64,000 bases of DNA. It comes from Planctomycetota bacterium (lineage in GTDB: Bacteria; Planctomycetota; Phycisphaerae; WQYP01). Below, piece by piece: positions 1 to 62,707 of this stretch (the stretch's first letter is position 1; each line of letters begins with the position of its first letter). The notes beneath the pieces are model-generated. The model saw only the letters and a program-made list of their open reading frames with translations. It had not been told where the DNA came from and searched no databases. The DNA is taken from positions 26,319 to 90,318 of the forward strand of contig JAJZDN010000008.1 of the NCBI GenBank assembly GCA_021805985.1, in the 5' to 3' direction. The translations under genes and the position numbers were made by a program.

Positions 1-457
1 GGTCGTGGATTTAATTGTGCGACATTGGCATGGCCCGGAGTGGCTGCCGCTGGCCACGGCTGCTGCCGCAATAGGCGGGCATGTATTTCCCTGCTATTTA
101 AAGTTCAAGGGGGGCAAAGGTGTGGCCACCACGTTTGGCGTGGTGATGGGGGTGTGGCCGGTTTTAACGCTCGCGGGTTTGGGGGCGGCGCTGGTGTTTT
201 TACTGGTGTTTCTGGTGTATCGGATCATTTCGCTTTCATCGCTGGTTGGCGTTATGGTGTTTATGACCCTGATTCCAATTATTGGCCATGACATAGGCCC
301 CGTTGATGGCTTCCTTTATCCCCAGCCCTGGACTAAACTCGCGCCGTTGATATTCACCGGGTGCCTGATTGGTGCGTTGATTATCATGAAACATCGCAGC
401 AACATCCGCCGACTGCTCAACGGCACCGAACCGCGAATGGGCGAAAAGCATAAATAA
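1..457 (+). CDS. plsY: Glycerol-3-phosphate acyltransferase PlsY, 5'-truncated by the window edge
   Basis: The translation is multi-TM and ends with HRSNIRRLLNGTE, the conserved PlsY C-terminal motif. The frame continues from the window start. Confidence 0.75.
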   Translation, partial: VVDLIVRHWHGPEWLPLATAAAAIGGHVFPCYLKFKGGKGVATTFGVVMGVWPVLTLAGLGAALVFLLVFLVYRIISLSSLVGVMVFMTLIPIIGHDIGPVDGFLYPQPWTKLAPLIFTGCLIGALIIMKHRSNIRRLLNGTEPRMGEKHK

Positions 458-569
458 TGCCTGCCGGCTTAGAACGCGTCGATCAGGTCAGGAATTCCAC
501 CTGTCCTGGGTGTATAATGTTTCGCCGGAGTGGCGGATGCTCACTGGCTTTTATGGAAAGGACTCTTTT

Positions 570-1649
570 ATGATTCAAACGCATGGCTATGCAGTGCAAA
601 GTGCTTCTTCTGCTTTGGAACCTTTTGTATTTTCTCGTCGCGTGCCGGGACCCAAAGATGTACATATTGACATACTATATTGCGGGATATGCCATACCGA
701 TTTGCATCAGTGTCGCAATGACTGGGGCGGTTCAACCTATCCGATGGTTCCGGGCCATGAGATTGTCGGACGCGTGAAATCGGTGGGTCCTGAGGTTACA
801 AAACTGAAAGTCGGCGACTTCGCCGGCGTCGGGTGTATGGTTGATTCCTGCCGCCAGTGCCCAGCCTGCCGGGCTGATCTGGAACAATATTGCGAAAACG
901 GCACCCTCTGGACCTACAATTCCAAAATTCCTGGCACCAATGAAAACACTTTTGGCGGTTATTCAGATCAGATCGTTGTGGAGGAACGTTTTGTCGTTAA
1001 AGTTGCATCCACGCTGGATCTCAAAGCCGCCGCGCCGCTGTTGTGCGCTGGCATTACCACGTATTCTCCGCTGCGACACTGGAAAATCGGTAAGGGACAA
1101 AAAGTGGGCGTGATTGGTTTGGGCGGCTTGGGGCACATGGGAATTAAATTTGCTAAAGCCTTGCAGGCTCACGTCGTCATGATCACAACCTCTCCGGAGA
1201 AAGCCAAGGATGCAATGCGACTGGGTGCGGATGAAGTTCTGATTTCCCGCGATTCCGCCGCCATGGCCCGCCACGCCAAAAGCTTCCATTTTCTGCTTAA
1301 TACCATTCCCACCGGCCACGATTTAAATCCGTATGCCCAGCTATTAAAGCTGGACGGCACCATGGTGCTGGTAGGCGCCTTAACCGCTCTGACGCCGCCG
1401 CTGCTGGGTGTCAGCATCATTCATGGTCGCCGCAGCATTGCCGGCTCCACCATCGGTGGCATGGCCGAAACGCAGGAAATGTTTGATTTCTGCGCGAAAC
1501 ATAACATTGTCAGTGATGTGGAAGTCATCGCGATTCAGAACGTCAATCAAGCCTTTGAACGCCTGCTGAAAAATGATGTCCGATACCGCTTTGTGATCGA
1601 CATGGCAACGCTCCGGACAACGGGATCGACAGGCGGCCCAGGCAAATAA
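570..1649 (+). CDS. Zn-dependent NAD(P)-dependent alcohol dehydrogenase (YahK / cinnamyl-alcohol dehydrogenase-like)
   Basis: GICHTDLH and GHEIVG zinc-ligand motifs, a structural-zinc Cys cluster (CRQCPACR) and a GLGGLGH Rossmann motif. The start was moved to the internal MIQTHGYAV that matches the usual N-terminus. Confidence 0.85.
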   Translation: MIQTHGYAVQSASSALEPFVFSRRVPGPKDVHIDILYCGICHTDLHQCRNDWGGSTYPMVPGHEIVGRVKSVGPEVTKLKVGDFAGVGCMVDSCRQCPACRADLEQYCENGTLWTYNSKIPGTNENTFGGYSDQIVVEERFVVKVASTLDLKAAAPLLCAGITTYSPLRHWKIGKGQKVGVIGLGGLGHMGIKFAKALQAHVVMITTSPEKAKDAMRLGADEVLISRDSAAMARHAKSFHFLLNTIPTGHDLNPYAQLLKLDGTMVLVGALTALTPPLLGVSIIHGRRSIAGSTIGGMAETQEMFDFCAKHNIVSDVEVIAIQNVNQAFERLLKNDVRYRFVIDMATLRTTGSTGGPGK

Positions 1650-1780
1650 GGCAGCCACTGGAAGACCTTCCCGCCTGAGGTACAGGCTACAAAGGACAGA
1701 TGGGATTTAACCCGTATTGATTGTTCGACCCCTGTTGAGCCGGAACAACACGGGGGCGTTTCTCCGGAGGAACTCATCAG

Positions 1781-3409
1781 ATGACACGTTTAGCCGTTTT
1801 AGTCGCGAGCTTGCCTCTTATGTTGTTCACCTTAACAGCGCACGCTGGAGTGCTTGGAGGGGTGCATGCCGATGGCTACATGTTTGTGCCCGTCAAGCGA
1901 GTGCCTAAAAATTATGATGCGGGCTTCTCCATGTATTCCGCGGCCTGGCCGCTCCTGCTGCGGTACCCGGGAAATCAATTTCAGTCAGGGCTTTTCGGTA
2001 CATGGATGGCGGCCCAGTACACAGGCAAGCCCCCGCAACATTTATATTCGGACATTGAAGGGGGCCTTGGCTGGTGGCGCGGAACCCGATTTCCCACTGC
2101 GGCCCCGAAGTTTCACCTGGGGGGTGTGGCGTTTAATTTTCAGTTCATAGCGGACGCACCGGGCAATGGCAAAGGCAGTTGGAAGCACCCGCGTGGGGCT
2201 TACGCCGTGGCCCAGCTTAGTCCTTGGTTGCTCTTTCCGCCTGATGGTCTCACACTGAAACCCGGCGTCAACGGTCAACTCTTTGGGTACGGCTATCTGC
2301 CGCTACCGCTTACCGATCCGCAAGCAACCACCGACGGCAAAAACATCCCCATGGGCAATCACTGCTGGACATTGTTTCTCAACACGCGTAACTTCAAGGG
2401 GCCAGTCTGTTTTTTTACGCCGTACTTCTGGAACCGCCCTGCCGTAAGGCACGCGCGCCTCGTTGGCAAATTGCTCGACTCGCGATGGTCCATTGCCAAT
2501 AAGGCCTTTCAGATGGAAACACAGTATCTTCCCGCCGCCATCAGCCAGATAAGTACGGGCACCTACGCGCGTCTGGGGCAGGTGTCCTTCCCAGCCGATC
2601 GCCAAGGGAACGCCGTCCTGCTCAACCGACTGACCAGTTACAGTCGTCAAGCGCTTTGGGACCCCGTAAAAGCTTGGTTTAACGGCGGCCCAGCGGTGAG
2701 CGGCAGGCTCCCCTCGTCGCAGGGCTTTGTGCAGCAGTTTAAGCCCCATTTGTGGTCTACTTGGAAGATCTATGCCAATAGTACGTCCAAGACGCAGCAC
2801 GCCGGACTGCCTTGGACACTTTTCGCCAAAGCATTTCTTCCCGACCCGGCGTCTTACGGCTTCACTTGGAACCGGCAGTTGGTGCACGACGGACCCGATG
2901 GAACCCGCGCCTTGTTACCGCGATTTTACCGGCTTGTGCACCGGGGAAAACAGGCCCAATGGCATGCGGTACACGCGGCCGATGTTCCCCCTGCGACTGG
3001 GCTTAAGCGGATCAACTTTTATCCATCGCGGAGGCGGCCGCCCCAACCCTACACCACGCCGGACGGCCCCAACAGTTCCTACAAAAAGCCCGGCCCGGCG
3101 GCCGGACCATTTTACGCTCATTTAAGCGATGGCTCGCTGGTAACCTATTACTGGTATCGCTTTGAAGACCAGCCCGCTCTGCTGCACGCCGACCTCAGCC
3201 AGGCCGAACGCAACAAAATGCAGAAGCGAGCGGAAATGCTGCAGCGCCATTGGACAAAAAATCGCCAGTACCTGCCGCCGCCAACCCGAGGATCGCTGGC
3301 TTATCTCGACCCGGCACAACTCGTCACGCCGCCCAAACGTCTGGCCATCGGCTATGTGCCGATTGTCACCCGCCAGCAGTGGGCGGCCTCTCGTGGCACC
3401 GGGAAATAA
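1781..3409 (+). CDS. Secreted hypothetical protein
   Basis: GGAGG RBS 9 nt upstream and a signal peptide MTRLAVLVASLPLMLFTLTAHA. The composition is rich in W, Y, G and P. No recognisable catalytic motifs. Confidence 0.5.
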   Translation: MTRLAVLVASLPLMLFTLTAHAGVLGGVHADGYMFVPVKRVPKNYDAGFSMYSAAWPLLLRYPGNQFQSGLFGTWMAAQYTGKPPQHLYSDIEGGLGWWRGTRFPTAAPKFHLGGVAFNFQFIADAPGNGKGSWKHPRGAYAVAQLSPWLLFPPDGLTLKPGVNGQLFGYGYLPLPLTDPQATTDGKNIPMGNHCWTLFLNTRNFKGPVCFFTPYFWNRPAVRHARLVGKLLDSRWSIANKAFQMETQYLPAAISQISTGTYARLGQVSFPADRQGNAVLLNRLTSYSRQALWDPVKAWFNGGPAVSGRLPSSQGFVQQFKPHLWSTWKIYANSTSKTQHAGLPWTLFAKAFLPDPASYGFTWNRQLVHDGPDGTRALLPRFYRLVHRGKQAQWHAVHAADVPPATGLKRINFYPSRRRPPQPYTTPDGPNSSYKKPGPAAGPFYAHLSDGSLVTYYWYRFEDQPALLHADLSQAERNKMQKRAEMLQRHWTKNRQYLPPPTRGSLAYLDPAQLVTPPKRLAIGYVPIVTRQQWAASRGTGK

Positions 3410-3439
3410 GCGCGATTGCTGCCCCATTTTTTATGACCG

Positions 3440-3485
3440 ACACCGTTTCCATAACGGTGTTCCGCTCTTAAAAGAGCGGCAAATT
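3440..3485. terminator. Two adjacent hairpins between convergent genes (possible bidirectional terminator)
   Basis: acaccgtt-tcca-taacggtgt and ccgctctt-aa-aagagcgg stem-loops. There is no strong U-tract. Confidence 0.25.
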
Positions 3486-5282: not shown

Positions 5283-7115
5283 ATGAAGCCGAGAAAATTA
5301 AGCATAGTGGCGAATTCGGCCCTGGCCCACGTGGCTATTGCATTGGCTCTGTCGGGTGCGCAATGTGGGCAGGCGATCGGGGAAATTACTCCCGGCTTCA
5401 TGAAGGGTGTCCTTTCCGGCGCGATAAAGACCCGGCCACTTCTCGGCACGCTCGCCTTAAATCCTGTGAAGAGTATTGCGATCCATATAAAGCCTTTGCA
5501 CTCCAAGCTCCTGATTGGTGGCGGTGCGACGTTGAAGGAGTCCTTCCACAACACCGGAACACAGCCTGCCTCCATCGGGTTCAGCATTCCCTGGTCCGGT
5601 TCGTTGCAGAAGTTTTCGGTCACAGGCCCAGCACAACCTGTGGAACGAACGAGGCTTTCCCGTTGGTGGCCCGGTAGTTATCGCTCCTTTATGTTCCACA
5701 CTTCAGTAGCTGTCATGGCAATAAAAGGGGGCCAAGTGTTGCGCCGACCAGGCGTCCTGCTGCCCGGCTCAATCTTTGATATGACGGTGCCCGGCACGTA
5801 CCATATCCGCACGGCTACCGGACCGACAAAATCGAACCAGACGGTGATCGTAATGTTGCCTCCTAACGTCGATAATCGCCCCCTGCGTCCATTTGTTGTA
5901 CCGCCAGGCGATGCTTGGCCCCGCGCCGTCGTATGGGGCAGACCTTGGCATGGCCTTATGGTTCGCCTTTACCAAATTAAGTCCAGGAAAAGGCACGCGG
6001 AGACTGGCTTCAGGTTGAGGGTGATGATCCGTAACCGTAATAGCAGTCCAACTTCCATCAGGCTGGTGGGTGTTGCGGCGGGGGATTTCGCAAAAATGCG
6101 CATTTACGGTCCGAACGGTATTTATTCCAACGCTCGAAAAGGGAAGAAAGTTAACCTCACGAATATCCCGGTTCCATTGACCGCTTATGGCAAGCTGCTG
6201 GCGAGTGGAGGATTGGCGAAGGTAAAGAAAACAAGTTTCACGCTGCAACCCAGGACCACATACGAATACGCGCCTTTGATAATACCGAATGCAACCCATG
6301 ACTTGTCATTGCCGGGACGGTACCGATTACAGGTGGAACTCGCGGGTACGCATTGTTGGTCGAATGTTGTGTCCCTGGGCCGACAACTTTCAATAACACC
6401 GATATCGCCGTCTATTGGCGATGTCGGACCGATTCGCCCGCCGGTTGAATCAGTCAGTGGCATTACCGCACGCCTGATTCCTGGTGCATCAGGCGTGCTG
6501 GTCAAGGCCCAGCTCGTGGATGCGGGCGCAGCGAAAGCCTATGTGCTACAAGGGCCGGGAAGCGGTTGGACGTTGCGTGCGTTCAAGATAAAGGGCGGGC
6601 GGTTGCTGACGACGCCCCGGACGCCTAAGGGCCGCCATATGCAGGTTGACCGCAACATGGGTATGTCGCCCCCTGCGACGATCATAACGAGCCGGGTTGT
6701 GGGAGTTGAATCATTTCCCTTGCCCCAATATTTCGTGTTTTCGGCCCCTGGAAAGTATATCGTTAGCGCGAGCCGCTGGATTGGCATCAGAGGTCGGAAG
6801 CAATGGGTCCGCCTCACGACGAACCTTCTCGAGCTGACCCTGGACCGCGCGGGAAAGGCCACTTGGAAAACGCGAAACGTCCATTGGCCTAAGCCAGTCC
6901 CGCGAAAGGTTCCGCCAGCATCGCGATTGCAGTCGAGCGAGATTCCCAAGTCCTGTCCGGTCGCGCCCCTGGCCGAACTCGCAGCGGCTATCAATCAGCG
7001 AAATGTTCAAACGGTAACCCGCGCCGGTAACAAGGCAACACCATCGGCGTGGCCAAGGTGGCGTGGCCAAGGGGAATCTTTCAGCGCAGCATGGAGAGTA
7101 AGGCAGCGACTGTAG
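5283..7115 (+). CDS. Large secreted hypothetical protein
   Basis: AAAGAGG RBS, then a signal peptide MKPRKLSIVANSALAHVAIALALSGAQCG. The ORF track's upstream extension from 5103 has no RBS and was rejected. Confidence 0.5.
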   Translation: MKPRKLSIVANSALAHVAIALALSGAQCGQAIGEITPGFMKGVLSGAIKTRPLLGTLALNPVKSIAIHIKPLHSKLLIGGGATLKESFHNTGTQPASIGFSIPWSGSLQKFSVTGPAQPVERTRLSRWWPGSYRSFMFHTSVAVMAIKGGQVLRRPGVLLPGSIFDMTVPGTYHIRTATGPTKSNQTVIVMLPPNVDNRPLRPFVVPPGDAWPRAVVWGRPWHGLMVRLYQIKSRKRHAETGFRLRVMIRNRNSSPTSIRLVGVAAGDFAKMRIYGPNGIYSNARKGKKVNLTNIPVPLTAYGKLLASGGLAKVKKTSFTLQPRTTYEYAPLIIPNATHDLSLPGRYRLQVELAGTHCWSNVVSLGRQLSITPISPSIGDVGPIRPPVESVSGITARLIPGASGVLVKAQLVDAGAAKAYVLQGPGSGWTLRAFKIKGGRLLTTPRTPKGRHMQVDRNMGMSPPATIITSRVVGVESFPLPQYFVFSAPGKYIVSASRWIGIRGRKQWVRLTTNLLELTLDRAGKATWKTRNVHWPKPVPRKVPPASRLQSSEIPKSCPVAPLAELAAAINQRNVQTVTRAGNKATPSAWPRWRGQGESFSAAWRVRQRL

Positions 7116-7510
7116 TGCTCGAAACCCGGCTTGTCGAGGTGATCATAGGACCCGGCGGCCAGGTGGCCTGGAGGACACATGGCGTCGCATTGCCGCAGCC
7201 TCCCGTCCGGAAAATTCCGCGACCGCCAGGGTAAAGAATGCCACATTAACATTTACGCGCTGCTCCGCCAGAGGATGGTAAACTTGAAAGCTCCTGGATG
7301 ACAACAGGCTCCTGGATGCTGGCAGATGTTATCGCAGGATGTATTGTCTCACATATTGCTGCACGGTGTTTGGTGTTTGCAAGATGTCTGCAAGATGTTT
7401 GCACGCATGGGCGGTTTGAAGTAACTTCAACCCTTGTGTAAACCGCTCCTTTCGGCCGCCACCTATGACGGGGCGGGTTTGCGCATGATCCTTGGCACAG
7501 CGGCGGATTC

Positions 7511-17244: not shown

Positions 17245-18183
17245 TTACAGACCCGCCAAGCGCACATCCTGCTGATCCAGGCAATGCCTTACCTGATCCA
17301 CATGTTCGCCCGTGAGTTGTTTAAGGGCTTCCAGATATTTTCGCCGCGTTTGCTGCACCACATCCGTGGGCAAGGTGGGGCCGGGCGGGCGTTTATTCCA
17401 GGTTAATGTTTCCAGATAATTTCTAACATATTGCTTATCAAAGCTGATCTGTTCCAGTCCTGGTTTGTAATCCACCAGGGGCCAGAAGCGCGAACTGTCT
17501 GGCGTGAGAACTTCATCTATAAGAATGGGGCGTCCGGTTTTCGCATCCAGTCCGAATTCAAATTTGGTGTCCGCCACAATCAGGCCGTGCAGGCGTGCCG
17601 CCTCTGCGGCAATATTGTAAAGCTTGATGGATGTATCACGTAATTCCGTCATCACGCCGCGCCCAACTTTATCGCATGCCTGATCAAACGTAATACTTTC
17701 ATCGTGCCCCTTTTCGGCCTTGGTCGTGGGCGTAAAAATGGGTGTGGGCAATTGCTGGGATAGCATCAAACCATGCGGTAATTTTACTCCGCAGATGGCA
17801 CCGTTTTTTTTGTATTCTTTCCAGCCGCCGCCGGCAATATAACCGCGTACCACGCATTCAATAGGTATCACCGCAGTTTTGCGCACCACCACCGATCGCC
17901 CAGCCAATTGCGCGCGAAAAGGCCTTAGCGCCGCGGGAAATTCCGCCGGCCGCGTGGCCAACAGATGGTGCTTGATATGCGGTGCGAAAAGTGTGAACCA
18001 GTAATTGCTTAATGCTGTGAGGATAATTCCCTTTTCCGGTATGGGCGTAGGTAAAATAACATCAAAAGCGCTGATGCGATCCGTAGCCACAATCAGCAAT
18101 TGCGTGCCAAGATCATACACATCGCGCACCTTGCCGCGCCGCAGTGGAAAACCGGGAATTTCTGTTTCTATAACCGTAGCCAA
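17245..18183 (-). CDS. purC: Phosphoribosylaminoimidazole-succinocarboxamide synthase (SAICAR synthetase, long form)
   Basis: GKVRDVYDLG, ADTKFEFG and the overall length match PurC. Confidence 0.9.
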   Translation of the reverse strand: MATVIETEIPGFPLRRGKVRDVYDLGTQLLIVATDRISAFDVILPTPIPEKGIILTALSNYWFTLFAPHIKHHLLATRPAEFPAALRPFRAQLAGRSVVVRKTAVIPIECVVRGYIAGGGWKEYKKNGAICGVKLPHGLMLSQQLPTPIFTPTTKAEKGHDESITFDQACDKVGRGVMTELRDTSIKLYNIAAEAARLHGLIVADTKFEFGLDAKTGRPILIDEVLTPDSSRFWPLVDYKPGLEQISFDKQYVRNYLETLTWNKRPPGPTLPTDVVQQTRRKYLEALKQLTGEHVDQVRHCLDQQDVRLAGL

Positions 18184-18451
18184 AATACTCTTCTGCCTTT
18201 CCAGTACCCTGAATCGCCGCTAGTTTAGAGATTCGCGGCCGGTATGCAATAGCGCCTCATTAGAGTGCCTCATTAGAGAAGAGAAAATAGAGAGTTGAAA
18301 GTAGCGCAAATTTGGCTGGCCCAAAACAGTGGCTGTGGCGGAGGCGGCGTGGCACCGGCAGAGATAGGCGCAACGTGTTGCCATATTTTTCATTATGACG
18401 GGTGTCAGTTGGCCAAGAGGGCCAGGTGTTTTAACCCTTGGCACTCAGGAG

Positions 18452-18466
18452 GGAGTTAGGAGTTAG
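18452..18466. repeat. GGAGTTA heptamer tandem repeat (2 copies), left boundary of the island
   Basis: ggagttaggagttag. Its reverse complement is found as 4 tandem copies at 21614-21646. Confidence 0.6.
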
Positions 18467-18804
18467 TGCGCGGTTACAGGCTACAGAAATCCGAGGGGGT
18501 AATTTTATTATTCTTTTCAGCGGTGCTTTTCCAATCTGCGGTAGATGGGATTGCTTTATCAGGCCTTTTCGATTTGTGACACTGCGTCACGAATTACGTG
18601 CTGTTGGCGCGCGTCGATCACACCGAGGCAAGGAGGCAGCAGAGAACTGGAGTTCCCCGCGCACCGATTAGGCACTTCGATACGCTGTATTGTGAGATGA
18701 GAAACCCGGCAGTGGGGGGGAGGCCAACGCTGCGCCGTTAGGGCGGGATTAAAGATTTCCGCAAGGCAGGTTATGATCCTGGCCGGAAAGACGAGGATTG
18801 ATCC

Positions 18805-20064
18805 ATGGTCCGATTAATTGAAACGATGAACTACCGATCACTGAAGCGCGTGCGGCAGGAGCTGGATGAGTTCCATGTGCTCGTGGGGCCTAATGCCAGC
18901 GGCAAGAGCACCTTCATGGACGTGTTGGCATTTCTAAGCCGCCTGGTGAACGATGGGTTGGATGCCGCGATTGCCGAGCGAGGTACGTTTGATGATCTCT
19001 GCTGGAACCGCGCGGGACAAAGGTTTGAATTGGCCATTGAGGTTGTCCTGCCGGAGGACTATCGGCAGCTACAGCACGTCTTTCGGGGCGTAGAGCCTTG
19101 CGCCATTCGGTATGAGTTGGCCATTGCAAAGGATGCAGCGGGCACTGTCAAGATCGTTGACGAGCAGGTGCTGCTGGCACGCGACAGCGCCACCTATGAT
19201 CCGGCGGCGTTGAGCAAGGGCATGGAGGATACGGTCTTCATGACGACCACCGGTAACGGTTCTTGGGTTAAGCTGTTAGCGACCACGAAGGCTGGCCCGG
19301 AGTATGCGCTCTCGCGGGAAGTCCAGGACCTCGCACGGCCAGATGAGGATCGATACCACGTGGTGTACCGTCCCAACGGCAAGCGGCCGATCTTTGGAAA
19401 TGTCTCCGAAATTGAGTTCCCGAGCACTGTTGCGCTGGGGCTGCTTCTAAGAGACCAAATCACCAGAGTCGATGTTCGGTCTGACGCCCTGCGTGCGCCG
19501 TCAGCTCCCGGCCAGGGGGCGAGGTTTTCTGGCGATGGGGGAAATCTTCCGTGGTTGATTGATGACCTGAAGGAGAACAAAGTACAGCAATATAGTGATT
19601 GGATCAGGCACGTGAAGACGGCGTTGCGGGGCTTCGAGAGCGTGCGGGTTGTCGAACGTCCGGAGGATCGGAAGCGGTATCTGATGATCCGGTATGCCGG
19701 CGGGCTTGAGGTGCCATCCTGGTGCTGCTCCGACGGTACGTTGTGCCTGCTGGCGCTGACTTTTCTGGCGTATCACTCCAAGCCTGGGGATGTCTATCTG
19801 GTGGAAGAACCGGAATCCCACATCCATCCACTGAACATCGAGCCGGTGATGCAATCCCTCGGCAGTGTTTATGGCGGGCAGGTGCTGGTCTCCACCCATT
19901 CGCCCGCCGTGCTGGCGTTAACGGACGTGGAGGACGTGCTGGCGTTCTCGGCTGATCCGCAAAATGGCACGCGCATTGTGCCCGGCAAGGACCATCCCCG
20001 GCTCCGGGATTGGAAGGGCGAGATAAGTCTCGGGACGCTGTTTGCCAGTGGAGTGCTGGGATGA
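18805..20064 (+). CDS. AAA_21 / ABC-type ATPase (OLD/RloA/AriA-like)
   Basis: Walker A GPNASGKST near the N-terminus, a long insert, then Walker B VYLVEEPESHIHP and an H-loop STHSP. This is the architecture of OLD/PARIS/Gabija-class ABC ATPases. Confidence 0.8.
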   Translation: MVRLIETMNYRSLKRVRQELDEFHVLVGPNASGKSTFMDVLAFLSRLVNDGLDAAIAERGTFDDLCWNRAGQRFELAIEVVLPEDYRQLQHVFRGVEPCAIRYELAIAKDAAGTVKIVDEQVLLARDSATYDPAALSKGMEDTVFMTTTGNGSWVKLLATTKAGPEYALSREVQDLARPDEDRYHVVYRPNGKRPIFGNVSEIEFPSTVALGLLLRDQITRVDVRSDALRAPSAPGQGARFSGDGGNLPWLIDDLKENKVQQYSDWIRHVKTALRGFESVRVVERPEDRKRYLMIRYAGGLEVPSWCCSDGTLCLLALTFLAYHSKPGDVYLVEEPESHIHPLNIEPVMQSLGSVYGGQVLVSTHSPAVLALTDVEDVLAFSADPQNGTRIVPGKDHPRLRDWKGEISLGTLFASGVLG

Positions 20065-20687
20065 GCAGCACGCGGGACATGGATCTGATCGTGCTGGTTC
20101 CCGGCAAAGATGAATCGGCGGCGTTAGAGGCGATGTTTGCTCGCCGGGAAGCAATTGGCATCCGTCCACTTCGCTACAAAATTGAGCGCCACGAGGAACG
20201 GGACCCGGGTTGTCGATTACAAGCACCCGTTTACCTGAGGTCGGCCATTACGCAGTTTGATCATGCGATCGTGATGTTTGACCGGGAAGGTTGCGGCAGA
20301 GAGCAGATGACTCGCGTGGAATTAGAGAAGGATTTGGAATCCAGGCTGGCAACTTCCGGTTGGGGTGACCGGGCGGCGGCAATTGTGATTGACCCCGAGC
20401 TTGAGAACTGGATATGGAGTGATTCACCGCGCGTGGATGATGTATTGGGCTGGAGAGGCAGAACACCTGATTTACGCCAGTGGCTGCGGGACCAACGCAT
20501 GTTGGCGGAAGGCCAGACCAAGCCGCCCCGGCCCAAAGAAGCAACGACCGCCGCCATGAAAAAAGTAATGAAGCGACGGACCTCTGATATCTACACGGAG
20601 ATCGCCTCGTGCGTGAGCCTGACGCGGTGTGTTGATCCGGCATTCTTGAAACTCTTGGGAGTTCTACGCGGCTGGTTTAAGGAGTAA
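20061..20687 (+). CDS. DUF4276/RloB-like small protein (predicted TOPRIM-like partner of the ATPase)
   Basis: ATGA translational coupling to the ATPase. About 208 aa with acidic motifs LIVLVPGKDES, IVMFDREGCGRE and IVIDPELENWIW, as in DUF4276/RloB-type TOPRIM-like proteins. The start was moved from 20010 to the coupled ATG at 20061. Confidence 0.5.
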   Translation: MSSTRDMDLIVLVPGKDESAALEAMFARREAIGIRPLRYKIERHEERDPGCRLQAPVYLRSAITQFDHAIVMFDREGCGREQMTRVELEKDLESRLATSGWGDRAAAIVIDPELENWIWSDSPRVDDVLGWRGRTPDLRQWLRDQRMLAEGQTKPPRPKEATTAAMKKVMKRRTSDIYTEIASCVSLTRCVDPAFLKLLGVLRGWFKE

Positions 20688-20693
20688 ATATCT

Positions 20694-20885
20694 ATGGCTA
20701 AGCAACCCTGGAAAGCGTGGCATGAGTTCGTGAAACCGCGGGATGACTTGCGCTCGGGCGAACTGCCGTTGCACATGTTCGCAGCCGACCTCTACGAAGT
20801 TATGATGCAGAACGGCAAGCGGCCGATCTACGAGAAGCCTGAGAACTTCTTCGCCCTGACTTTCCCCACGCACAACCTGTCTTGA
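20694..20885 (+). pseudogene. N-terminal fragment (63 codons) of a DUF499-type BREX/Pgl ATPase (brxC/pglY-like), truncated
   Basis: MAKQPWKAWHEFVKPRDDLRSGELPLHMFAADLYEVMM...ENFFALTFPT matches the conserved N-terminus of BrxC/PglY-family proteins, which are about 1200 aa. The ORF stops after 63 codons, right at the repeat block. Confidence 0.5.
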
Positions 20886-20900
20886 CGTCAATGATCGATG

Positions 20901-20918
20901 ACCACGGATCACGGATGG
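20901..20918. repeat. ACGGATC heptamer pair, inverted copy of the 21203-21290 array
   Basis: accacggatcacggatgg is the reverse complement of the downstream tgatccg repeat. Confidence 0.6.
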
Positions 20919-21030
20919 TTCTGAAGGCTATAGGCTCCGGGGGGCGGGGAAATCAGAATTTGCCAGTAATCGCAGCATTCATCAGTAGACCCAGCATTGG
21001 ACCGTGGATTCAGCATTGAGCAGCCAGCTC

Positions 21031-21087
21031 AGATTCCAGATCCCAAATTCCAAATTCCAGGTTCCAGGTTCCAGGTTCCAAATTCCC
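21031..21087. repeat. ATTCCAR heptamer tandem array (about 8 copies)
   Basis: agattccagatcccaaattccaaattccaggttccaggttccaggttccaaattcc. Confidence 0.8.
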
Positions 21088-21088
21088 C

Positions 21089-21170
21089 CTCTCCAATCGG
21101 GCCGCCGCCCGATCCGCTCTACTGCTCACCTCTCAAAATTCACCTCTCTAATCGGGCCGCAGCCCGATTT
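21089..21170. repeat. Two direct copies of a 27-bp element, each with a perfect GC-rich hairpin
   Basis: ctctccaatcgggccgccgcccgatcc and ctctctaatcgggccgcagcccgattt. Each contains the palindrome atcgggc-N4-gcccgat. Confidence 0.75.
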
Positions 21171-21202
21171 CCCGTGCCCCTCGCGCCCTATAGCCCCGGT
21201 AT

Positions 21203-21290
21203 TGATCCGTGATCCGTGATCCATGATCCATGATCCGTGATCCGTGATCCGTGATCCGTGATCCGTGATCCGTGATCCGTGATCCGTGAT
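21203..21290. repeat. TGATCCG heptamer tandem array (about 12 copies, two TGATCCA variants)
   Basis: tgatccgtgatccgtgatccatgatccatgatccg... read directly from the sequence. Confidence 0.9.
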
Positions 21291-21613
21291 AACTGATCAC
21301 CGCCCGCTATTTGAAAACCAAATAATCCCCCAAGATCGCATGGCCCGCAATCCACAACCGCCACGCGTCGCGTCCTAAACTCCTTGCCCTGCACGCAAAC
21401 TCCCCCTGTTTAGCGTCGTCGCCCGGCGACGAGCGCCGCCAATACCAGACCAACCCCACTGGTATCCGCGTAATCTGGGCAATCCGCAAAATCTGTGGAC
21501 CCTCCGCCTCCGCGCCCTCGACGACCTCTGTGGCTCTTTCCGGCTGTCCCCTGTAACCCGTAACCTCGCACGGCATCCCGCATTTAGCATTTAGCCGCGC
21601 AGCGCTTCCAAAA

Positions 21614-21646
21614 ACTTCTAACTCCTAACTTCTAACTCCTAAGTCC
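21614..21646. repeat. CTAACTY heptamer array (4 copies), inverted partner of 18452-18466, right boundary of the island
   Basis: cttctaactcctaacttctaactcctaagtcc. Confidence 0.6.
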
Positions 21647-22227
21647 GTTCTCGTAAACCCCAGAATACTAAAACCCAAAATAACTTGGCCATCTTGGCCA
21701 CCTTGAACCAAACCCTCTAAAATCAACCCCTTCCTCTACATGTCCAACCTGGCCACCTAGCCTCTTTAACCTGGCCTCCTTGGCCCCCTTTGGCCCCCTT
21801 GATATCCACCACAATGAGCAATCAATAAATGCTCACATATTCCAAACTCCTCATCCCTGCGTTTAAAAAACAGTTTTCCACCTTGCAGCCGGAAACGGGC
21901 GCGAAAACTCCCCGTCGCCCTTCCCGGCAAAACGCCAGACGCCGTCTGACAAATTGGAGGCCACTGCGATCGGCTCGGAATCAGCAAGCAAATCAGGAAG
22001 CATAATAATCCCGACACCGCCCGGACAATCCTCTCCGTTCCCTCCGCCACCTCTTGTGAATTAACGTCTTTTGCGTTCAGAATCATTGAATTGCTTTTTT
22101 TACCACGCAGGCGGGGGGTTGGGGTATACTTTGGGGCTGCGAAGGTGGCCTGGCCGCGGATGCGGTGGAATTTTGGGCGGGCGGTATAAAGAGTCCCGGT
22201 TGGCTATCGGGTTTGGAAAAGAGATTC

Positions 22228-22638
22228 ATGAGCAAAATACTGTTGGCAGTTTCCGAACAATGGACGCCGGATAAGCGCATGGACGCTCTGGGGCAGTGGG
22301 CCAATCGTATGGATGCGCCGATTATTGCGGTGCATGTGGTGGTGGGGCTTTCGGAAAGTGCCAAGGAAGATAGTCCGGGCGAACGGGCGCTTAAAGATGT
22401 TGTCATTCAGTTAAAAAAGACCAATCCGCGGGTAGAATCGCAGCTTTTATTTGCCAATGATCTGGTAGATGGACTTTTTCAGGCCGCTACCGAGCATGAA
22501 GCTACAATGATTGTGCTGGGGCTTTCCCGGCACGGTGTGCTGGAGCGGCTGATTGAAGGCAACATTCAGCGGGCGATTCTGAATAATAGCCGCCTGCCGA
22601 TTTTGGCTCTGCCACCCGATTGGAACGGCATTATCTGA
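22228..22638 (+). CDS. Universal stress protein family (UspA-like)
   Basis: About 137 aa. ILLAVSE...IIAVHVV...TMIVLGLSRHGVLERL matches the Usp alpha/beta fold pattern. Confidence 0.7.
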   Translation: MSKILLAVSEQWTPDKRMDALGQWANRMDAPIIAVHVVVGLSESAKEDSPGERALKDVVIQLKKTNPRVESQLLFANDLVDGLFQAATEHEATMIVLGLSRHGVLERLIEGNIQRAILNNSRLPILALPPDWNGII

Positions 22639-22682
22639 TTAAACGGTTGCCATGAAATATTATTTGAAGGTTTTACAAAATT

Positions 22683-25619
22683 ATGAACGCGCAAGCTGCC
22701 CCTGTGATTTCCAACGTTGATTCCCGAGCCGGCCGGAATTGGGCTTTACTGGAACCGGCGGGTGGGTTTGCCGCCCGCCATAACGGCCCGTCCGACGATG
22801 AAGTTGTGCTGATGCTGCAAACGCTCGGGCTGGCTTCCCTGGATGATCTGGTGGATAAGACCGTTCCGTCCGCCATCCGCATGAGCCGCAAACTGGCGCT
22901 GCCCGCGCCGCTTTCCGAACGCGCGCTATTGGAAAAATTAAATGTCATGGGATCGAAAAATAAAAAATTTCGGTCGCTCATCGGCATGGGCTATTACGGC
23001 TGCATCACGGCACCGGTTATACAGCGCAACATTCTGGAAAATCCGGGTTGGTATACCCAATATACGCCTTACCAGGCGGAAATTGCCCAAGGGCGGCTGG
23101 AAGCCTTGCTGAATTTCCAGACCATGATAGCAGAACTTACCGCATTACCTGTTTCCAATGCGTCCTTATTGGATGAAGCCACCGCCGCCGCGGAAGCCAT
23201 GGCCATGTGCCATTCCGTCGCCGAGCCGGGGCGTAACGTATTTTTCATCGCAGAAAATTGCCATCCACAAACCATTGACGTGGTGCACACCCGTGCCATG
23301 GGCCTGGGCATTACGCCGGTGGTCGGTGCTGCGTCACAAATAGATTGCAAATCCGGAAAAATCTTCGGCATGTTGGTGCAATATCCCGCAACCGACGGCC
23401 AGATTATTCCCCTGGATGAGCTGGCGAAGCAGGCCCATCACGGCGGAATTAAACTCGTGGTAGCAACAGATCTTCTGACCCTGACCATCCTGCGGCCGCC
23501 GGGAGAATTCGGAGCTGATATTGCCGTGGGTTCCAGCCAGCGGTTGGGAATGCCGATGGGGTACGGCGGCCCACATGCGGGTTTCCTGGCGGCACGGGAG
23601 GAATTTACCCGGAAAATGCCAGGACGCATTGTGGGTATTTCGCGGGATGTCAATGGCGAGCCGGCCTACCGACTGGCGATTCAAACCCGGGAACAACACA
23701 TTCGGCGGGAAAAAGCCACCAGCAACATCTGCACCGCGCAGGTTTTGCCGGCGATTATTTCTGCCGCGCACGCGATCTATCATGGCCCGCAAGGCCTGAC
23801 GGATATTGCCCTGCGCATCCATGCCTGGACGCTGGTTTTGGCCGGCGGATTGGAACGCATGGGCTACAAAATCATGCATGAACATTATTTTGATACGCTG
23901 CGAATTATTCCATCGCCCGGCGTAACAACCCAACAAATTATACAGGACGCCGCAACGCGGAAATTTAATTTCCGTCCATTCGGGGACGGAACTATTGGCT
24001 TATCCCTGGATGAATTAACGGATCTTGAAGAAGTGCACTCGCTACTGCATGTATTTTCGCAGGGCCGGCCTCTGCCTTATCTGCTGAATCAAGTGGTCCA
24101 GGATATGCGTATGCAATATCCAACGGCCCTGGCCCGTACCAGCCGTTTCCTGACGCATCCGGTATTTAATACCCACCATAGCGAAACCGAAATACAACGT
24201 TATTTGCGCATGCTGGAATCACGGGATCTTTCATTGACCACGTCCATGATTCCGCTGGGGTCATGCACAATGAAACTTAATGCCGCCGTGGAAATGATGC
24301 CCATCACCGCACCGCATTGGGCGGATGTACACCCATTCTGCCCGCCGGATCAGGCGGCGGGTTATCAGATTTTAATGAGCCAGCTTGAACGGTTTTTATG
24401 TGAAATTACAGGCTTCTCGGCCGTATCATTCCAGCCCAATGCGGGTTCTCAGGGCGAATACGCCGGCTTAATGACGATTCGGGCGTACCATAGCGGGCAG
24501 GGGCAATCGGGTAGAAATATCTGCCTGATTCCCGTTTCCGCGCATGGCACCAATCCGGCCAGTGCGACCGTCGCGGGTTTGCAGGTCGTGCCGGTGGCCT
24601 GCGATGCGCACGGCGATATTGATCTGCAGGATTTGCGCCGCCTAGCGCAACAGCATCAGGAAAATCTCTCCTGTCTGATGGCAACTTACCCCTCCACGCA
24701 CGGGGTATTTGAAGAGCATATCCGGGAAATTTGTGACATTGTTCATGCCCATGGCGGCCAAATTTACATGGACGGGGCCAACATGAACGCCCAGGTGGGC
24801 CTGTGTCGTCCGGCGGATATGGGGGCGGATGTCTGCCACTTGAATTTGCATAAAACCTTTTGTATTCCGCATGGCGGTGGCGGCCCGGGAATGGGTCCCA
24901 TCGCCGTGGCTGAACATCTGATTCCGTATTTGCCGGGCCACCCGGTAATTGGCATGGGCACCGCCAAATCCCTGGGAACCATTTCCGCGGCACCGTATGG
25001 CAGTGCTTTAATTCTTATTATTCCATGGGCATATATCAGTCTGATGAGTGGTTCAGGCCTGACCCGTGCCACGGAACTGGCCATCCTGAATGCCAATTAC
25101 ATGGCTGCCCGCTTAAAAGAACATTATCCGATCCGTTTTGTCGGCACACGCGGGTTCTGTGCCCATGAATTTATTGTGGATGCCAGAGAGTTTGAAGCCT
25201 CAGCGGGAATTAAAGTTGAAGACATCGCCAAGCGCCTCATGGACTACAGCTTTCACGCGCCGACCGTTTCCTGGCCGGAGCCAGGGACATTGATGATTGA
25301 ACCCACGGAAAGCGAAAGTAAAGCAGAGTTGGACCGTTTTTGTGATGCCATGATCGCGATCCGCAATGAAATAAGGGAAATTGAAAGCGGGAAAGCCGAT
25401 CGTAAAAACAACGTGCTGAAAAATGCTCCGCATACGGCGCGCATGTTGGCCAGCGAAACATGGCCCCATGGCTACAGCCGCGAAAAGGCTGCCTATCCGC
25501 TGGATTATCTGAAAGCCCATAAATTTTGGCCGGCGGTCGGGCGCATAGATAATCCGTATGGTGATCGTAACCTGGTGTGCTCCTGCCCACCGATGCCGCA
25601 AAAAGAGGAAATATCATGA
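22683..25619 (+). CDS. gcvP: Glycine dehydrogenase (decarboxylating), single-chain P-protein
   Basis: 978 aa. The region around SMIPLGSCTMKLNA, and the lysine context CHLNLHKTFCIPHGGGGPGMGP, are diagnostic of GcvP. Confidence 0.9.
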   Translation: MNAQAAPVISNVDSRAGRNWALLEPAGGFAARHNGPSDDEVVLMLQTLGLASLDDLVDKTVPSAIRMSRKLALPAPLSERALLEKLNVMGSKNKKFRSLIGMGYYGCITAPVIQRNILENPGWYTQYTPYQAEIAQGRLEALLNFQTMIAELTALPVSNASLLDEATAAAEAMAMCHSVAEPGRNVFFIAENCHPQTIDVVHTRAMGLGITPVVGAASQIDCKSGKIFGMLVQYPATDGQIIPLDELAKQAHHGGIKLVVATDLLTLTILRPPGEFGADIAVGSSQRLGMPMGYGGPHAGFLAAREEFTRKMPGRIVGISRDVNGEPAYRLAIQTREQHIRREKATSNICTAQVLPAIISAAHAIYHGPQGLTDIALRIHAWTLVLAGGLERMGYKIMHEHYFDTLRIIPSPGVTTQQIIQDAATRKFNFRPFGDGTIGLSLDELTDLEEVHSLLHVFSQGRPLPYLLNQVVQDMRMQYPTALARTSRFLTHPVFNTHHSETEIQRYLRMLESRDLSLTTSMIPLGSCTMKLNAAVEMMPITAPHWADVHPFCPPDQAAGYQILMSQLERFLCEITGFSAVSFQPNAGSQGEYAGLMTIRAYHSGQGQSGRNICLIPVSAHGTNPASATVAGLQVVPVACDAHGDIDLQDLRRLAQQHQENLSCLMATYPSTHGVFEEHIREICDIVHAHGGQIYMDGANMNAQVGLCRPADMGADVCHLNLHKTFCIPHGGGGPGMGPIAVAEHLIPYLPGHPVIGMGTAKSLGTISAAPYGSALILIIPWAYISLMSGSGLTRATELAILNANYMAARLKEHYPIRFVGTRGFCAHEFIVDAREFEASAGIKVEDIAKRLMDYSFHAPTVSWPEPGTLMIEPTESESKAELDRFCDAMIAIRNEIREIESGKADRKNNVLKNAPHTARMLASETWPHGYSREKAAYPLDYLKAHKFWPAVGRIDNPYGDRNLVCSCPPMPQKEEIS

Positions 25620-39744: not shown

Positions 39745-39886
39745 CCCATTTGAAATTTAAAATTTGAGATTTGAAAAACCTAAAGTTGGCGGCTGCGCGG
39801 TGAGCTTGTGTGGGCTTGATCTTGTGTATCTGTTGGCCCCCGGGGCGATTCAGGCTTATAATCGCTTTGATATTGGAGAATACTAA

Positions 39887-61382: not shown

Positions 61383-62707
<1,325 letters not shown>

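Follow-up and report, generated by a model that had tools for sequence, protein, structure and literature searches.

A 410-bp imperfect palindrome of heptamer arrays and twin hairpins in a Phycisphaerae genome: probable mosaic repeat DNA at the broken end of a decayed anti-phage cluster

The subject of this analysis is a 410-bp non-coding segment (20885-21300) in a 64,000-nt stretch of DNA, referred to below as the window, from a Planctomycetota bacterium of the class Phycisphaerae (GCA_021805985.1, contig JAJZDN010000008.1, positions 26,319 to 90,318). Several heptamer arrays and two GC-rich hairpins are packed together in this segment, which lies between the purC and usp genes, immediately after the stub of a DUF499/HmaC-type gene belonging to a truncated anti-phage cluster, and ahead of the usp and gcvP genes. 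The Usp homologs named Phycisphaerae show 85% and 71% identity with the Usp of the window, and the best match obtained with gcvP in GTDB shows 62%.

The coding part preceding the segment consists of four pieces, all on the plus strand: the last ~55 bp (18750-18804) of a gene located just ahead of the ATPase when the island is intact; an AAA_21 ATPase resembling HEC-01A and mad3 (18805-20064; Pfam AAA_21, 1.5e-24; PADLOC HEC-01A, 5.7e-37, and mad3, 4.5e-35); its DUF4276-like partner, resembling HEC-01B and mad4 (20061-20687; PADLOC mad4, 3.3e-5; Pfam DUF4276, weak); and a 63-codon stub of a DUF499/HmaC AAA+ ATPase (20694-20885), which matches residues 4-57 of the 941 residues of HmaC (PADLOC, E = 4e-7) and in which homology ends at 20879. 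The stub shares 88% identity with the N-terminal part of a DUF499 gene from Elusimicrobia. In one locus of the intact type (L230, GCA_021794795.1), positions 409-2532 match positions 18750-20879 of the window with 92% identity and exact homology ends, and within positions 1-3484 another gene stands directly before the ATPase and a full-length DUF499 gene after it. The left deletion breakpoint is therefore located at 18749/18750 and the right one at 20879/20880, and what is left of the DUF499 ATPase is its first 62 codons. At the right junction, after ...CACAACCTG, L230 stays in the DUF499 gene, whereas the window goes on with TCTTGACGTCAATGATCG... into the left arm of the segment. Searches with tblastn using DUF499, DUF1156, and DUF1016 proteins yielded no remnants beyond the stub. 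Since the homology limits are exact and no further DUF499 or DUF1156 remnants were detected, what the window retains of an Hma/MADS-type island is 2.1 kb from its interior, cleanly cut at both ends. Intact layouts of the Hma/MADS type, which is defined by a helicase, a DUF1156 methyltransferase, and a full-length DUF499 protein, are present in L099 and L230; what remains in the window is the AAA_21/DUF4276 pair and the 62 codons. The pair itself (HEC-01, mad3/mad4-like) is intact between the two clean breakpoints. The short DUF499 proteins returned by a protein search turned out to be frameshifted or cut-off full-length genes and form no real pattern.

The defence fragment and the non-coding DNA around it form a 3.85-kb block (18256-22107), the place of which is occupied by 138 bp in the closest relative (L216/L217/L218, Usp 93% identical), where purC and usp are 318 bp apart. 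Homology between the window and L216 ends at 18255 and resumes at about 22108-22120, according to both blastn and alignment. A 13-bp tandem duplication, GCCTCATTAGAGT in 1.9 copies (18254-18278), coincides with the exact left edge of the block, where the homology of the relative stops. On the right, the native upstream region of usp (22108-22227, plus strand) is conserved in four relatives and marks the insertion edge; across these four relatives, conservation is restricted to the ~120 bp before usp. Since this native region begins at about 22108, the arrays lie at least 820 bp away from it and all the repeat-rich DNA falls within the inserted block.

The outermost features of the 410-bp segment are two heptamer arrays which a sequence-only reading had described as inverted relative to each other. 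This inversion was confirmed and found to extend beyond the arrays to two whole arms, 20885-20954 and 21166-21300, the alignment of which in inverted orientation scores 52, as compared with 20 ± 4 for shuffled sequences. As the outer arrays are thus the tips of ~70-nt inverted arms, the 410 bp constitute one imperfect palindrome. The left arm (20885-20954; inverted repeats I1 and I11) reads as the degenerate heptads TCAATGA TCGATGA CCACGGA TCACGGA, followed by GGCTATAGG...GGGGCGGGGAAATC, and the right arm (21166-21300) as GATTTCCCG...GCCCTATAGCC, followed by the TGATCCG array. By eye, the right arm carries the heptad unit of the left arm expanded to 12.6 copies, while the left arm has four degenerate ones. 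Three features lie between the arms: three copies of CAGCATT, eight CARRTTC heptads, and a 55-bp duplication containing two hairpins. The whole segment is predicted to fold as one long hairpin, both as DNA (z = -3.5 relative to shuffled controls) and as minus-strand RNA (z = -5.65). It starts 5-8 bp past the hmaC breakpoint and makes up the first third of the 1.23-kb non-coding tract that extends from 20880 to 22107. No second copy of the palindrome was found in the window or in the ~140 kb of related genomes examined, and the arm pattern gave one match in the JGI metagenomes, on a contig of unrelated context, which is about what is expected by chance according to a rough estimate.

The features listed in the sequence-only reading, namely three kinds of 7-bp tandem array and two direct copies of a hairpin, are all present and far exceed chance. 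The left array, CACGGAT x2, is exact at 20903-20916 and sits inside the degenerate four-unit run (20888-20918, by eye). The CARRTTC array (21030-21086), identified using Tandem Repeats Finder (TRF) and exact runs, has a period of 7, 8.1 copies, and 86% matches, with three unit variants (CAGATYC, CAAATTC, and CAGGTTC). The TGATCCG array (21203-21290) comprises 12.6 copies with 97% matches and a TRF score of 162, and includes two CCATGAT variants. The CAGCATT core occurs three times on the same strand in 20973-21029, at 20973, 20992, and 21011, with an exact spacing of 19 bp; these account for 3 of the 20 matches to this pattern in the window. The head-to-tail repetition of short units that characterizes heptanucleotide microsatellites is present in the segment (12.6 and 8.1 units), along with a marked excess of identity at a lag of 7: this identity reaches 0.57 in 20890-21300, which is the maximum in the window, as compared with 0.251 ± 0.032 for 411-bp window tiles. 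Seven of the 11 exact period-7 runs of the window fall in 20903-21595, and the density of arrays in the tract is ~7 per kb, vs. ~0.2-0.8 per kb elsewhere in the window. The TGATCCG array (21203-21299) also presents 13 GATC sites 7 bp apart, adjoining the remains of a methylation-linked defence system.

That the arrays might be assembly artefacts was not borne out, since two independent assemblies (L083 and L084) span them with an identical sequence and the same array copy numbers; the two apparently come from the same population. Three further contigs agree with the window up to their ends, which lie inside an array.

The two hairpins share the core AATCGGGCCGCNGCCCGAT, which occurs at 21095-21113 and 21150-21168 and nowhere else in the window; when three mismatches are allowed, four matches are obtained, corresponding to the two palindromic sites read on both strands, vs. 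0.23 expected. Each hairpin has an 8-bp GC-rich stem and a 4-nt loop, with a predicted stability of about -16 to -17 kcal/mol. Both lie within a 55-bp tandem duplication (D4; 35 nt, 86% identical) and are direct repeats 55 bp apart. The twin-hairpin module as a whole (21079-21169, minus strand), made of two 55-bp units, belongs to a dispersed extragenic family of this Phycisphaerae lineage, and the minus strand corresponds to the orientation in which the module is found in relatives, just 3' of genes. The element detected in related Phycisphaerae, GAGCAG[C/T]AGAGCGAA[T/C]CGGGC[T/C]GCGGCCCGATTAGAGCAGGTGTGAGTAGAACAGGTGAACAGT, is present there at two other loci. At the first one (L221/L222/L223), its start, in sense orientation, is no more than ~15 nt from the batA stop codon; at the second one (L224/L225), it lies ~440 nt past an MFS gene. 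These two loci are ~95% identical over ~68 nt, and the copies in the window match the element over 38 nt with 86.8% identity (E = 9e-7) and over 56 nt with 78.6% identity (E = 4e-5). In L224, a second, different GC-rich hairpin occurs ~55 nt downstream, which gives the same direct twin layout as in the window. Among the 230 loci fetched, including 80 genomes of other phyla, the diagnostic hairpin pattern was confined to Phycisphaerae loci. The stricter form of this pattern has no match in IMG/VR; the looser form has two, with ORF-like (open reading frame-like), non-repetitive flanks, and these were set aside as probably due to chance. Three of the four distinct copies have the tetranucleotide GTAG on the minus strand, which is the sense one; it precedes the stem at a distance of 5 nt, without adjoining it.

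The L224 copy lies in a 1.39-kb non-coding tract after the MFS gene (5983-7372), which holds the twin hairpin and a repeat of roughly 270 bp (by eye). The syntenic spot in L216 shares part of this tract and carries in addition a CAACGAA x3.9 array and a TGATCACGGATCAAT motif.

Heptamer arrays are also a feature of the relatives. In four related contigs, TRF gives 1-4 period-7 arrays per ~15-20 kb, and all seven of the arrays which were placed against gene calls are intergenic; none were detected in three non-Phycisphaerae control loci. For one orthologous AATCTGA array, 4.6 units are counted in L221 as against 3.6 in L222, the difference being a clean 7-bp gap between identical flanks. This change of exactly one unit between related strains makes the slipped-strand origin put forward in the sequence-only reading plausible. 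According to Mrazek (2007), as relayed in PMC4679880 and PMC4692102, heptanucleotides are the commonest class of long simple sequence repeats in many bacteria, and slippage is the cause proposed; the groups named as repeat-rich are Burkholderia, Cyanobacteria, Actinobacteria, and Xanthomonas (PMC4679880, PMC4692102). The sequence-only reading had also considered that the repeats might simply be a generic dispersed repeat, and this applies in part: the twin hairpin is dispersed in the lineage and the relatives contain other intergenic heptamer arrays, but the exact TGATCCG and CARRTTC arrays do not recur in the lineage DNA examined.

The AATCTGA array belongs to a non-coding element of ~290-440 bp located 3' of batA, which also includes a C-rich box, an internal 67-nt duplication, and a hairpin (L222 1-287 and 4233-4673; L221 5253-5700). 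A ~290-bp element beginning with a heptamer array is present twice in L222, in direct orientation and with 91% identity between the copies; these flank a 3.9-kb block of four genes, in the place of which L221 has PIN/MazE and methyltransferase genes. In the window itself, an ATTTGAA x4.1 array (39748-39776) starts 4 bp past the stop codon of an acetyl-xylan-esterase gene, and is 79% similar over 29 nt to the AATCTGA/AATTTGA array found 3' of batA in the relatives. In IMG/VR, TGATCCG arrays were identified in 8 contigs and CCAGGTT arrays in 9, and several heptamers occur together in L173, L182, and L171, in some cases with inverted array pairs. The 14-kb contig L173 (65% GC) contains at least 19 exact heptamer arrays of 7 kinds, and its inverted AGGAGTT/AACTCCT array pairs form hairpins, at 1273-1311 and 5546-5623, for example; multi-heptamer genomes exist well outside the cyanobacteria. 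In three unrelated environmental contigs (L095 1059-1221, L096 6540-6709, and L098 1-420; all from IMG/VR), CACGGAT/TGATCCG arrays alternate with a GTTTCACGTGAAAC palindrome, the units being 35 bp long; the heptad is shared with the present segment, but the mosaic is another one.

The rest of the inserted non-coding tract (21301-22107) is strongly C-rich on the plus strand, with a GC skew of -0.3 to -0.48, and carries six further short arrays: GTAACCY x2 at 21554, read from the sequence, and, as given by TRF, GCATTTA x2.3 at 21580, AACTYCT x4.9 at 21613, a 9-mer array at 21684, a 9/10-mer array at 21772, and a 12-mer array at 21979. It also contains a terminator-like hairpin on the minus strand (21686-21700). 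The non-coding arm on the left side of the block (18256-18749) has a terminator-like hairpin as well (18409-18425), along with GGAGTTA x2 (18452-18466) and a GGTTACAG/GCTACAG pair. The two sides of the defence fragment carry inverted collinear patches of motifs, at 18410-18480 and 21610-21790 (the latter within a broader range, 21550-21790), consisting of a terminator-like TGGCCAAGAKGGCCA hairpin, GGAGTTA repeats, and a GTAACC-type pair, the significance of which is modest. When 18184-18804 was compared in inverted orientation with 21300-22228 using strict gap costs, the only part to survive was the GGAGTTA array, with a score of 30 vs. a shuffle maximum of 29; the inverted similarity across the defence fragment is thus suggestive only. 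Likenesses to relatives were also looked for in the C-rich box and the post-hairpin module (z = 1.7-2.9, not significant) and in a shared 11-mer vocabulary, which is not discriminating, as ordinary coding segments share just as many.

The view that the region is non-coding, which had been taken from the letters alone, was upheld: neither Rfam nor Pfam matched, and a protein search with the longest ORF was blank. In the Rfam searches (gathering threshold in the whole window; E ≤ 5 in 18100-22700), nothing was found in the tract, and no Pfam family matched any of the six tract ORFs. The longest ORF of the tract (106 aa, 21766-22086, minus strand), which sits just outside the region delimited in the sequence-only reading, had zero phmmer matches among 1.84 billion representative proteins. 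A hidden or decayed gene in the tract was accordingly rejected, Pfam, phmmer, and tblastn all being blank beyond the stub. CRISPR was likewise excluded, as it had been initially, since the units are contiguous and 7 nt long instead of being 23-50-nt repeats with unique spacers, and since Rfam gave no match in the tract.

At the gene end of the tract, comparisons between assemblies brought several other features to light. The 2439-nt stretch L089 1-2439, part of a contig from another sample and aligned with 21272-23710 of the window, is identical through the tract and usp up to 22628 and ~10% divergent from 22629 into gcvP; the switch is either a population recombination boundary or the mark of a chimeric contig. 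Four assemblies of the strain with an 89%-identical Usp (L224-L227) all end 296-370 bp upstream of usp; no microsatellite occupies these ends, so that unassemblable or variable DNA must follow immediately. Much farther along the window, a tRNA gene (61383-61455, plus strand) overlaps the end of a phage-type integrase ORF (61415-62707, minus strand), which is likely to be an integration hotspot unrelated to the arrays.

The twin hairpin has several points in common with the repetitive extragenic palindromes known as REP/BIME elements (PMC3733652, PMC2817692): it is a short GC-rich imperfect palindrome present outside genes at unrelated loci, it stands just 3' of genes in the relatives, it forms part of a mosaic together with other short motifs, and GTAG occurs 5' of the stem in three of four distinct copies. 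In REPs, an unpaired GTAG or CGTC tag stands at one end of the stem, and GTAG-tagged REPs have been reported in the PVC superphylum (PMC3733652). The differences are that the two copies here are direct instead of alternating, that the GTAG is 5 nt off the stem, that the conserved element (~68 nt) is longer than a classic REP, and that no RAYT (Y1 transposase) gene was found among the window ORFs scanned. REP/BIME elements usually occupy more than 100 loci per genome; in the DNA examined here, three distinct loci were seen across the related Phycisphaerae, the two copies at the present locus being the sole ones in the window. Because the tag is not adjacent, the copies are direct, the loci seen so far number three, and no RAYT gene was found among the window ORFs scanned, we have called the element REP/BIME-like without filing it as a member. 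The arrays, for their part, resemble heptanucleotide simple sequence repeats such as the cyanobacterial STRR heptamers, TAACTGA, and the GGGNATC repeats in that they are intergenic tandem units of 7 nt, with differing heptamers side by side and variable numbers of units. They differ in their host, a member of the Phycisphaerae (Planctomycetota), which is not a named repeat-rich group, in that the units are not of the G-quadruplex type and the arrays do not lie just upstream of start codons, and in their extreme density.

Taken in its context, the 410-bp segment is probably non-coding mosaic repeat DNA at a recombination scar, that is, the broken end of a decayed anti-phage cluster, and not a gene, a switch, or a new system. 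Of the options listed in the sequence-only reading, a recombination scar fits the context best, since the tract starts at the exact hmaC breakpoint and the 3.85-kb block is missing from the closest relative. The core of the block is an internal piece of an Hma/MADS-type island that has been cut at both ends, and the DNA joined to the right-hand cut would have been built from two kinds of repeat which this lineage keeps in its intergenic DNA: a dispersed REP/BIME-like twin-hairpin element, located 3' of genes in the relatives, and heptanucleotide microsatellites, which would grow and shrink by replication slippage. Two inverted modules, each composed of heptads and a GC box, enclose the twin hairpin together with two more tandem arrays to form the 410-bp palindrome, and the heptad run of one arm has expanded to 12.6 units. 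The TGATCCG and CARRTTC arrays presumably arose by the same slippage as the array in the relatives, and the rearrangements by which the island was truncated may have used the repeats as substrates or left them as by-products. The arrays would have no dedicated function here, and the hairpins would act at most as RNA 3' stem-loops, by analogy with REPs.

Several points weigh against this picture. No other occurrence of the exact TGATCCG and CARRTTC arrays was found in the lineage DNA examined, and no copy-number variation was found at the arrays in public assemblies, where contigs agree or stop inside the arrays. Outside the inserted block, the window contains 4 exact two-unit heptamer duplications as against ~3.9 expected; with duplications at chance level there, a propensity of the lineage does not explain the density of the tract by itself. 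As ~140 kb of relatives were examined, the "dispersed family" rests on three loci. Lastly, a function or a mobile element which is hidden from an analysis confined to sequence could lie behind the palindromic layout and the ATCAC core of the heptads.

The mobile-element explanation would make the palindrome a non-autonomous element similar to a miniature inverted-repeat transposable element (MITE), which was inserted in hmaC and next to which a deletion removed the rest of the gene. Its size of ~400 bp, typical of MITEs, its non-coding nature, its strong fold-back potential, and its ~70-nt imperfect terminal inverted repeats (score 52 vs. 20 ± 4) all fit this description, as does the distance of 5-8 bp between the left arm and the hmaC breakpoint. 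We nevertheless consider it improbable, because there is no target-site duplication (the flanks GACGTCAA and CCGCCCGC share nothing), hmaC does not resume past the right end, the interior consists of tandem repeats, no transposase is present nearby among the window ORFs scanned, and no further copy was found in the 64-kb window or the ~140 kb of relatives, the single match in the JGI metagenomes being at chance level. A somewhat better case, although still a minority one, can be made for a role at the RNA level, in which the hairpins, or perhaps the palindrome in its entirety, would serve as 3' stem-loops by which transcripts are stopped or stabilized, so that usp-gcvP would be insulated from read-through from the defence genes. 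REPs are located mostly downstream of coding regions and many of them are thought to act as RNA elements (PMC3733652); in keeping with this analogy, the stems are stable (about -16 to -17 kcal/mol) and in the relatives the element follows the batA stop codon by ~15 nt at most, in sense orientation. Neither hairpin is followed by a U-tract, however, the terminator scan did not flag them, the orientation of the module relative to the upstream hmaC stub is opposite to that observed in the relatives, and the heptamer arrays would be left unexplained. Such a role would at any rate be compatible with a recombination scar made of mosaic repeats.

Explanations centered on the heptads themselves seem to us less credible. 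The idea that they are putative binding sites for a protein reading 7 bp (an operator, a centromere-like site, or an iteron array) is modelled on the ribbon-helix-helix (RHH) protein ParB/omega of pSM19035; the sites of this protein are runs of 7-10 contiguous WATCACW heptads, both direct and inverted, and at least four heptads are needed (PMC9499535). The minus strand of the segment does read (GATCACG)n, with the ATCAC core, with 12.6 units in a row and, 290 bp away, another 2-4 in inverted orientation, and so presents contiguous 7-bp units, direct and inverted, in numbers of at least four. But the context is chromosomal, the neighbors are AAA_21, DUF4276, the DUF499 stub, Usp, and GcvP, and neither a cognate RHH, ParA, nor Rep gene was found among the neighboring genes, the tract ORFs (which are small and match no family), and the large window ORFs scanned; the bases flanking the core are G instead of A/T, the array is much longer than in pSM19035, several unrelated heptamers lie side by side, and arrays in the relatives gain and lose units freely. 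We therefore regard this analogy as very unlikely to hold. More doubtful still is the contingency locus suggested in the sequence-only reading, in which the number of units would switch a neighboring gene by phase variation. Long, near-perfect microsatellites are prone to slippage and several assemblies break inside the arrays, although, on the assumption of a short assembly k-mer, the break in the Logan contig may reflect nothing else. The proposal was not supported: no array lies in an ORF, the arrays come after a truncated, presumably dead gene and are separated by at least 820 bp from the conserved region ahead of usp, and the spanning assemblies have the same copy number. A last proposal, which to our mind is a long shot about on a par with the MITE, is that modules made of heptads and hairpins, instead of being passive debris, supply the working ends of a process peculiar to the Phycisphaerae, or the substrates on which it recombines; accessory blocks such as defence islands would be inserted, exchanged, and cut short by this process, with the heptads being bound by a putative 7-bp-reading protein. 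The direct ~290-bp copies on either side of a 3.9-kb block which L222 has and its sister strain L221 lacks, the inverted patches of motifs (18410-18480 and 21610-21790) flanking the defence fragment, and the start of the palindrome within 8 bp of a gene breakpoint are all consistent with this proposal.

If the segment is, as we think probable, a scar composed of mosaic repeats, an odd cluster of repeats is accounted for in terms of known bacterial repeat classes and does not need to be pursued as a new system. A family of REP/BIME-like twin hairpins and a habit of heptamer slippage are recorded here in uncultured Phycisphaerae; in a limited literature search, no earlier description of either was found for this class. 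The locus also provides a dated example of the decay of an anti-phage island, with exact breakpoints and an intact version in a relative. Should it prove true that these repeats sit systematically at the edges of variable blocks, they would be markers of genome plasticity in this lineage, and might possibly be among its drivers.

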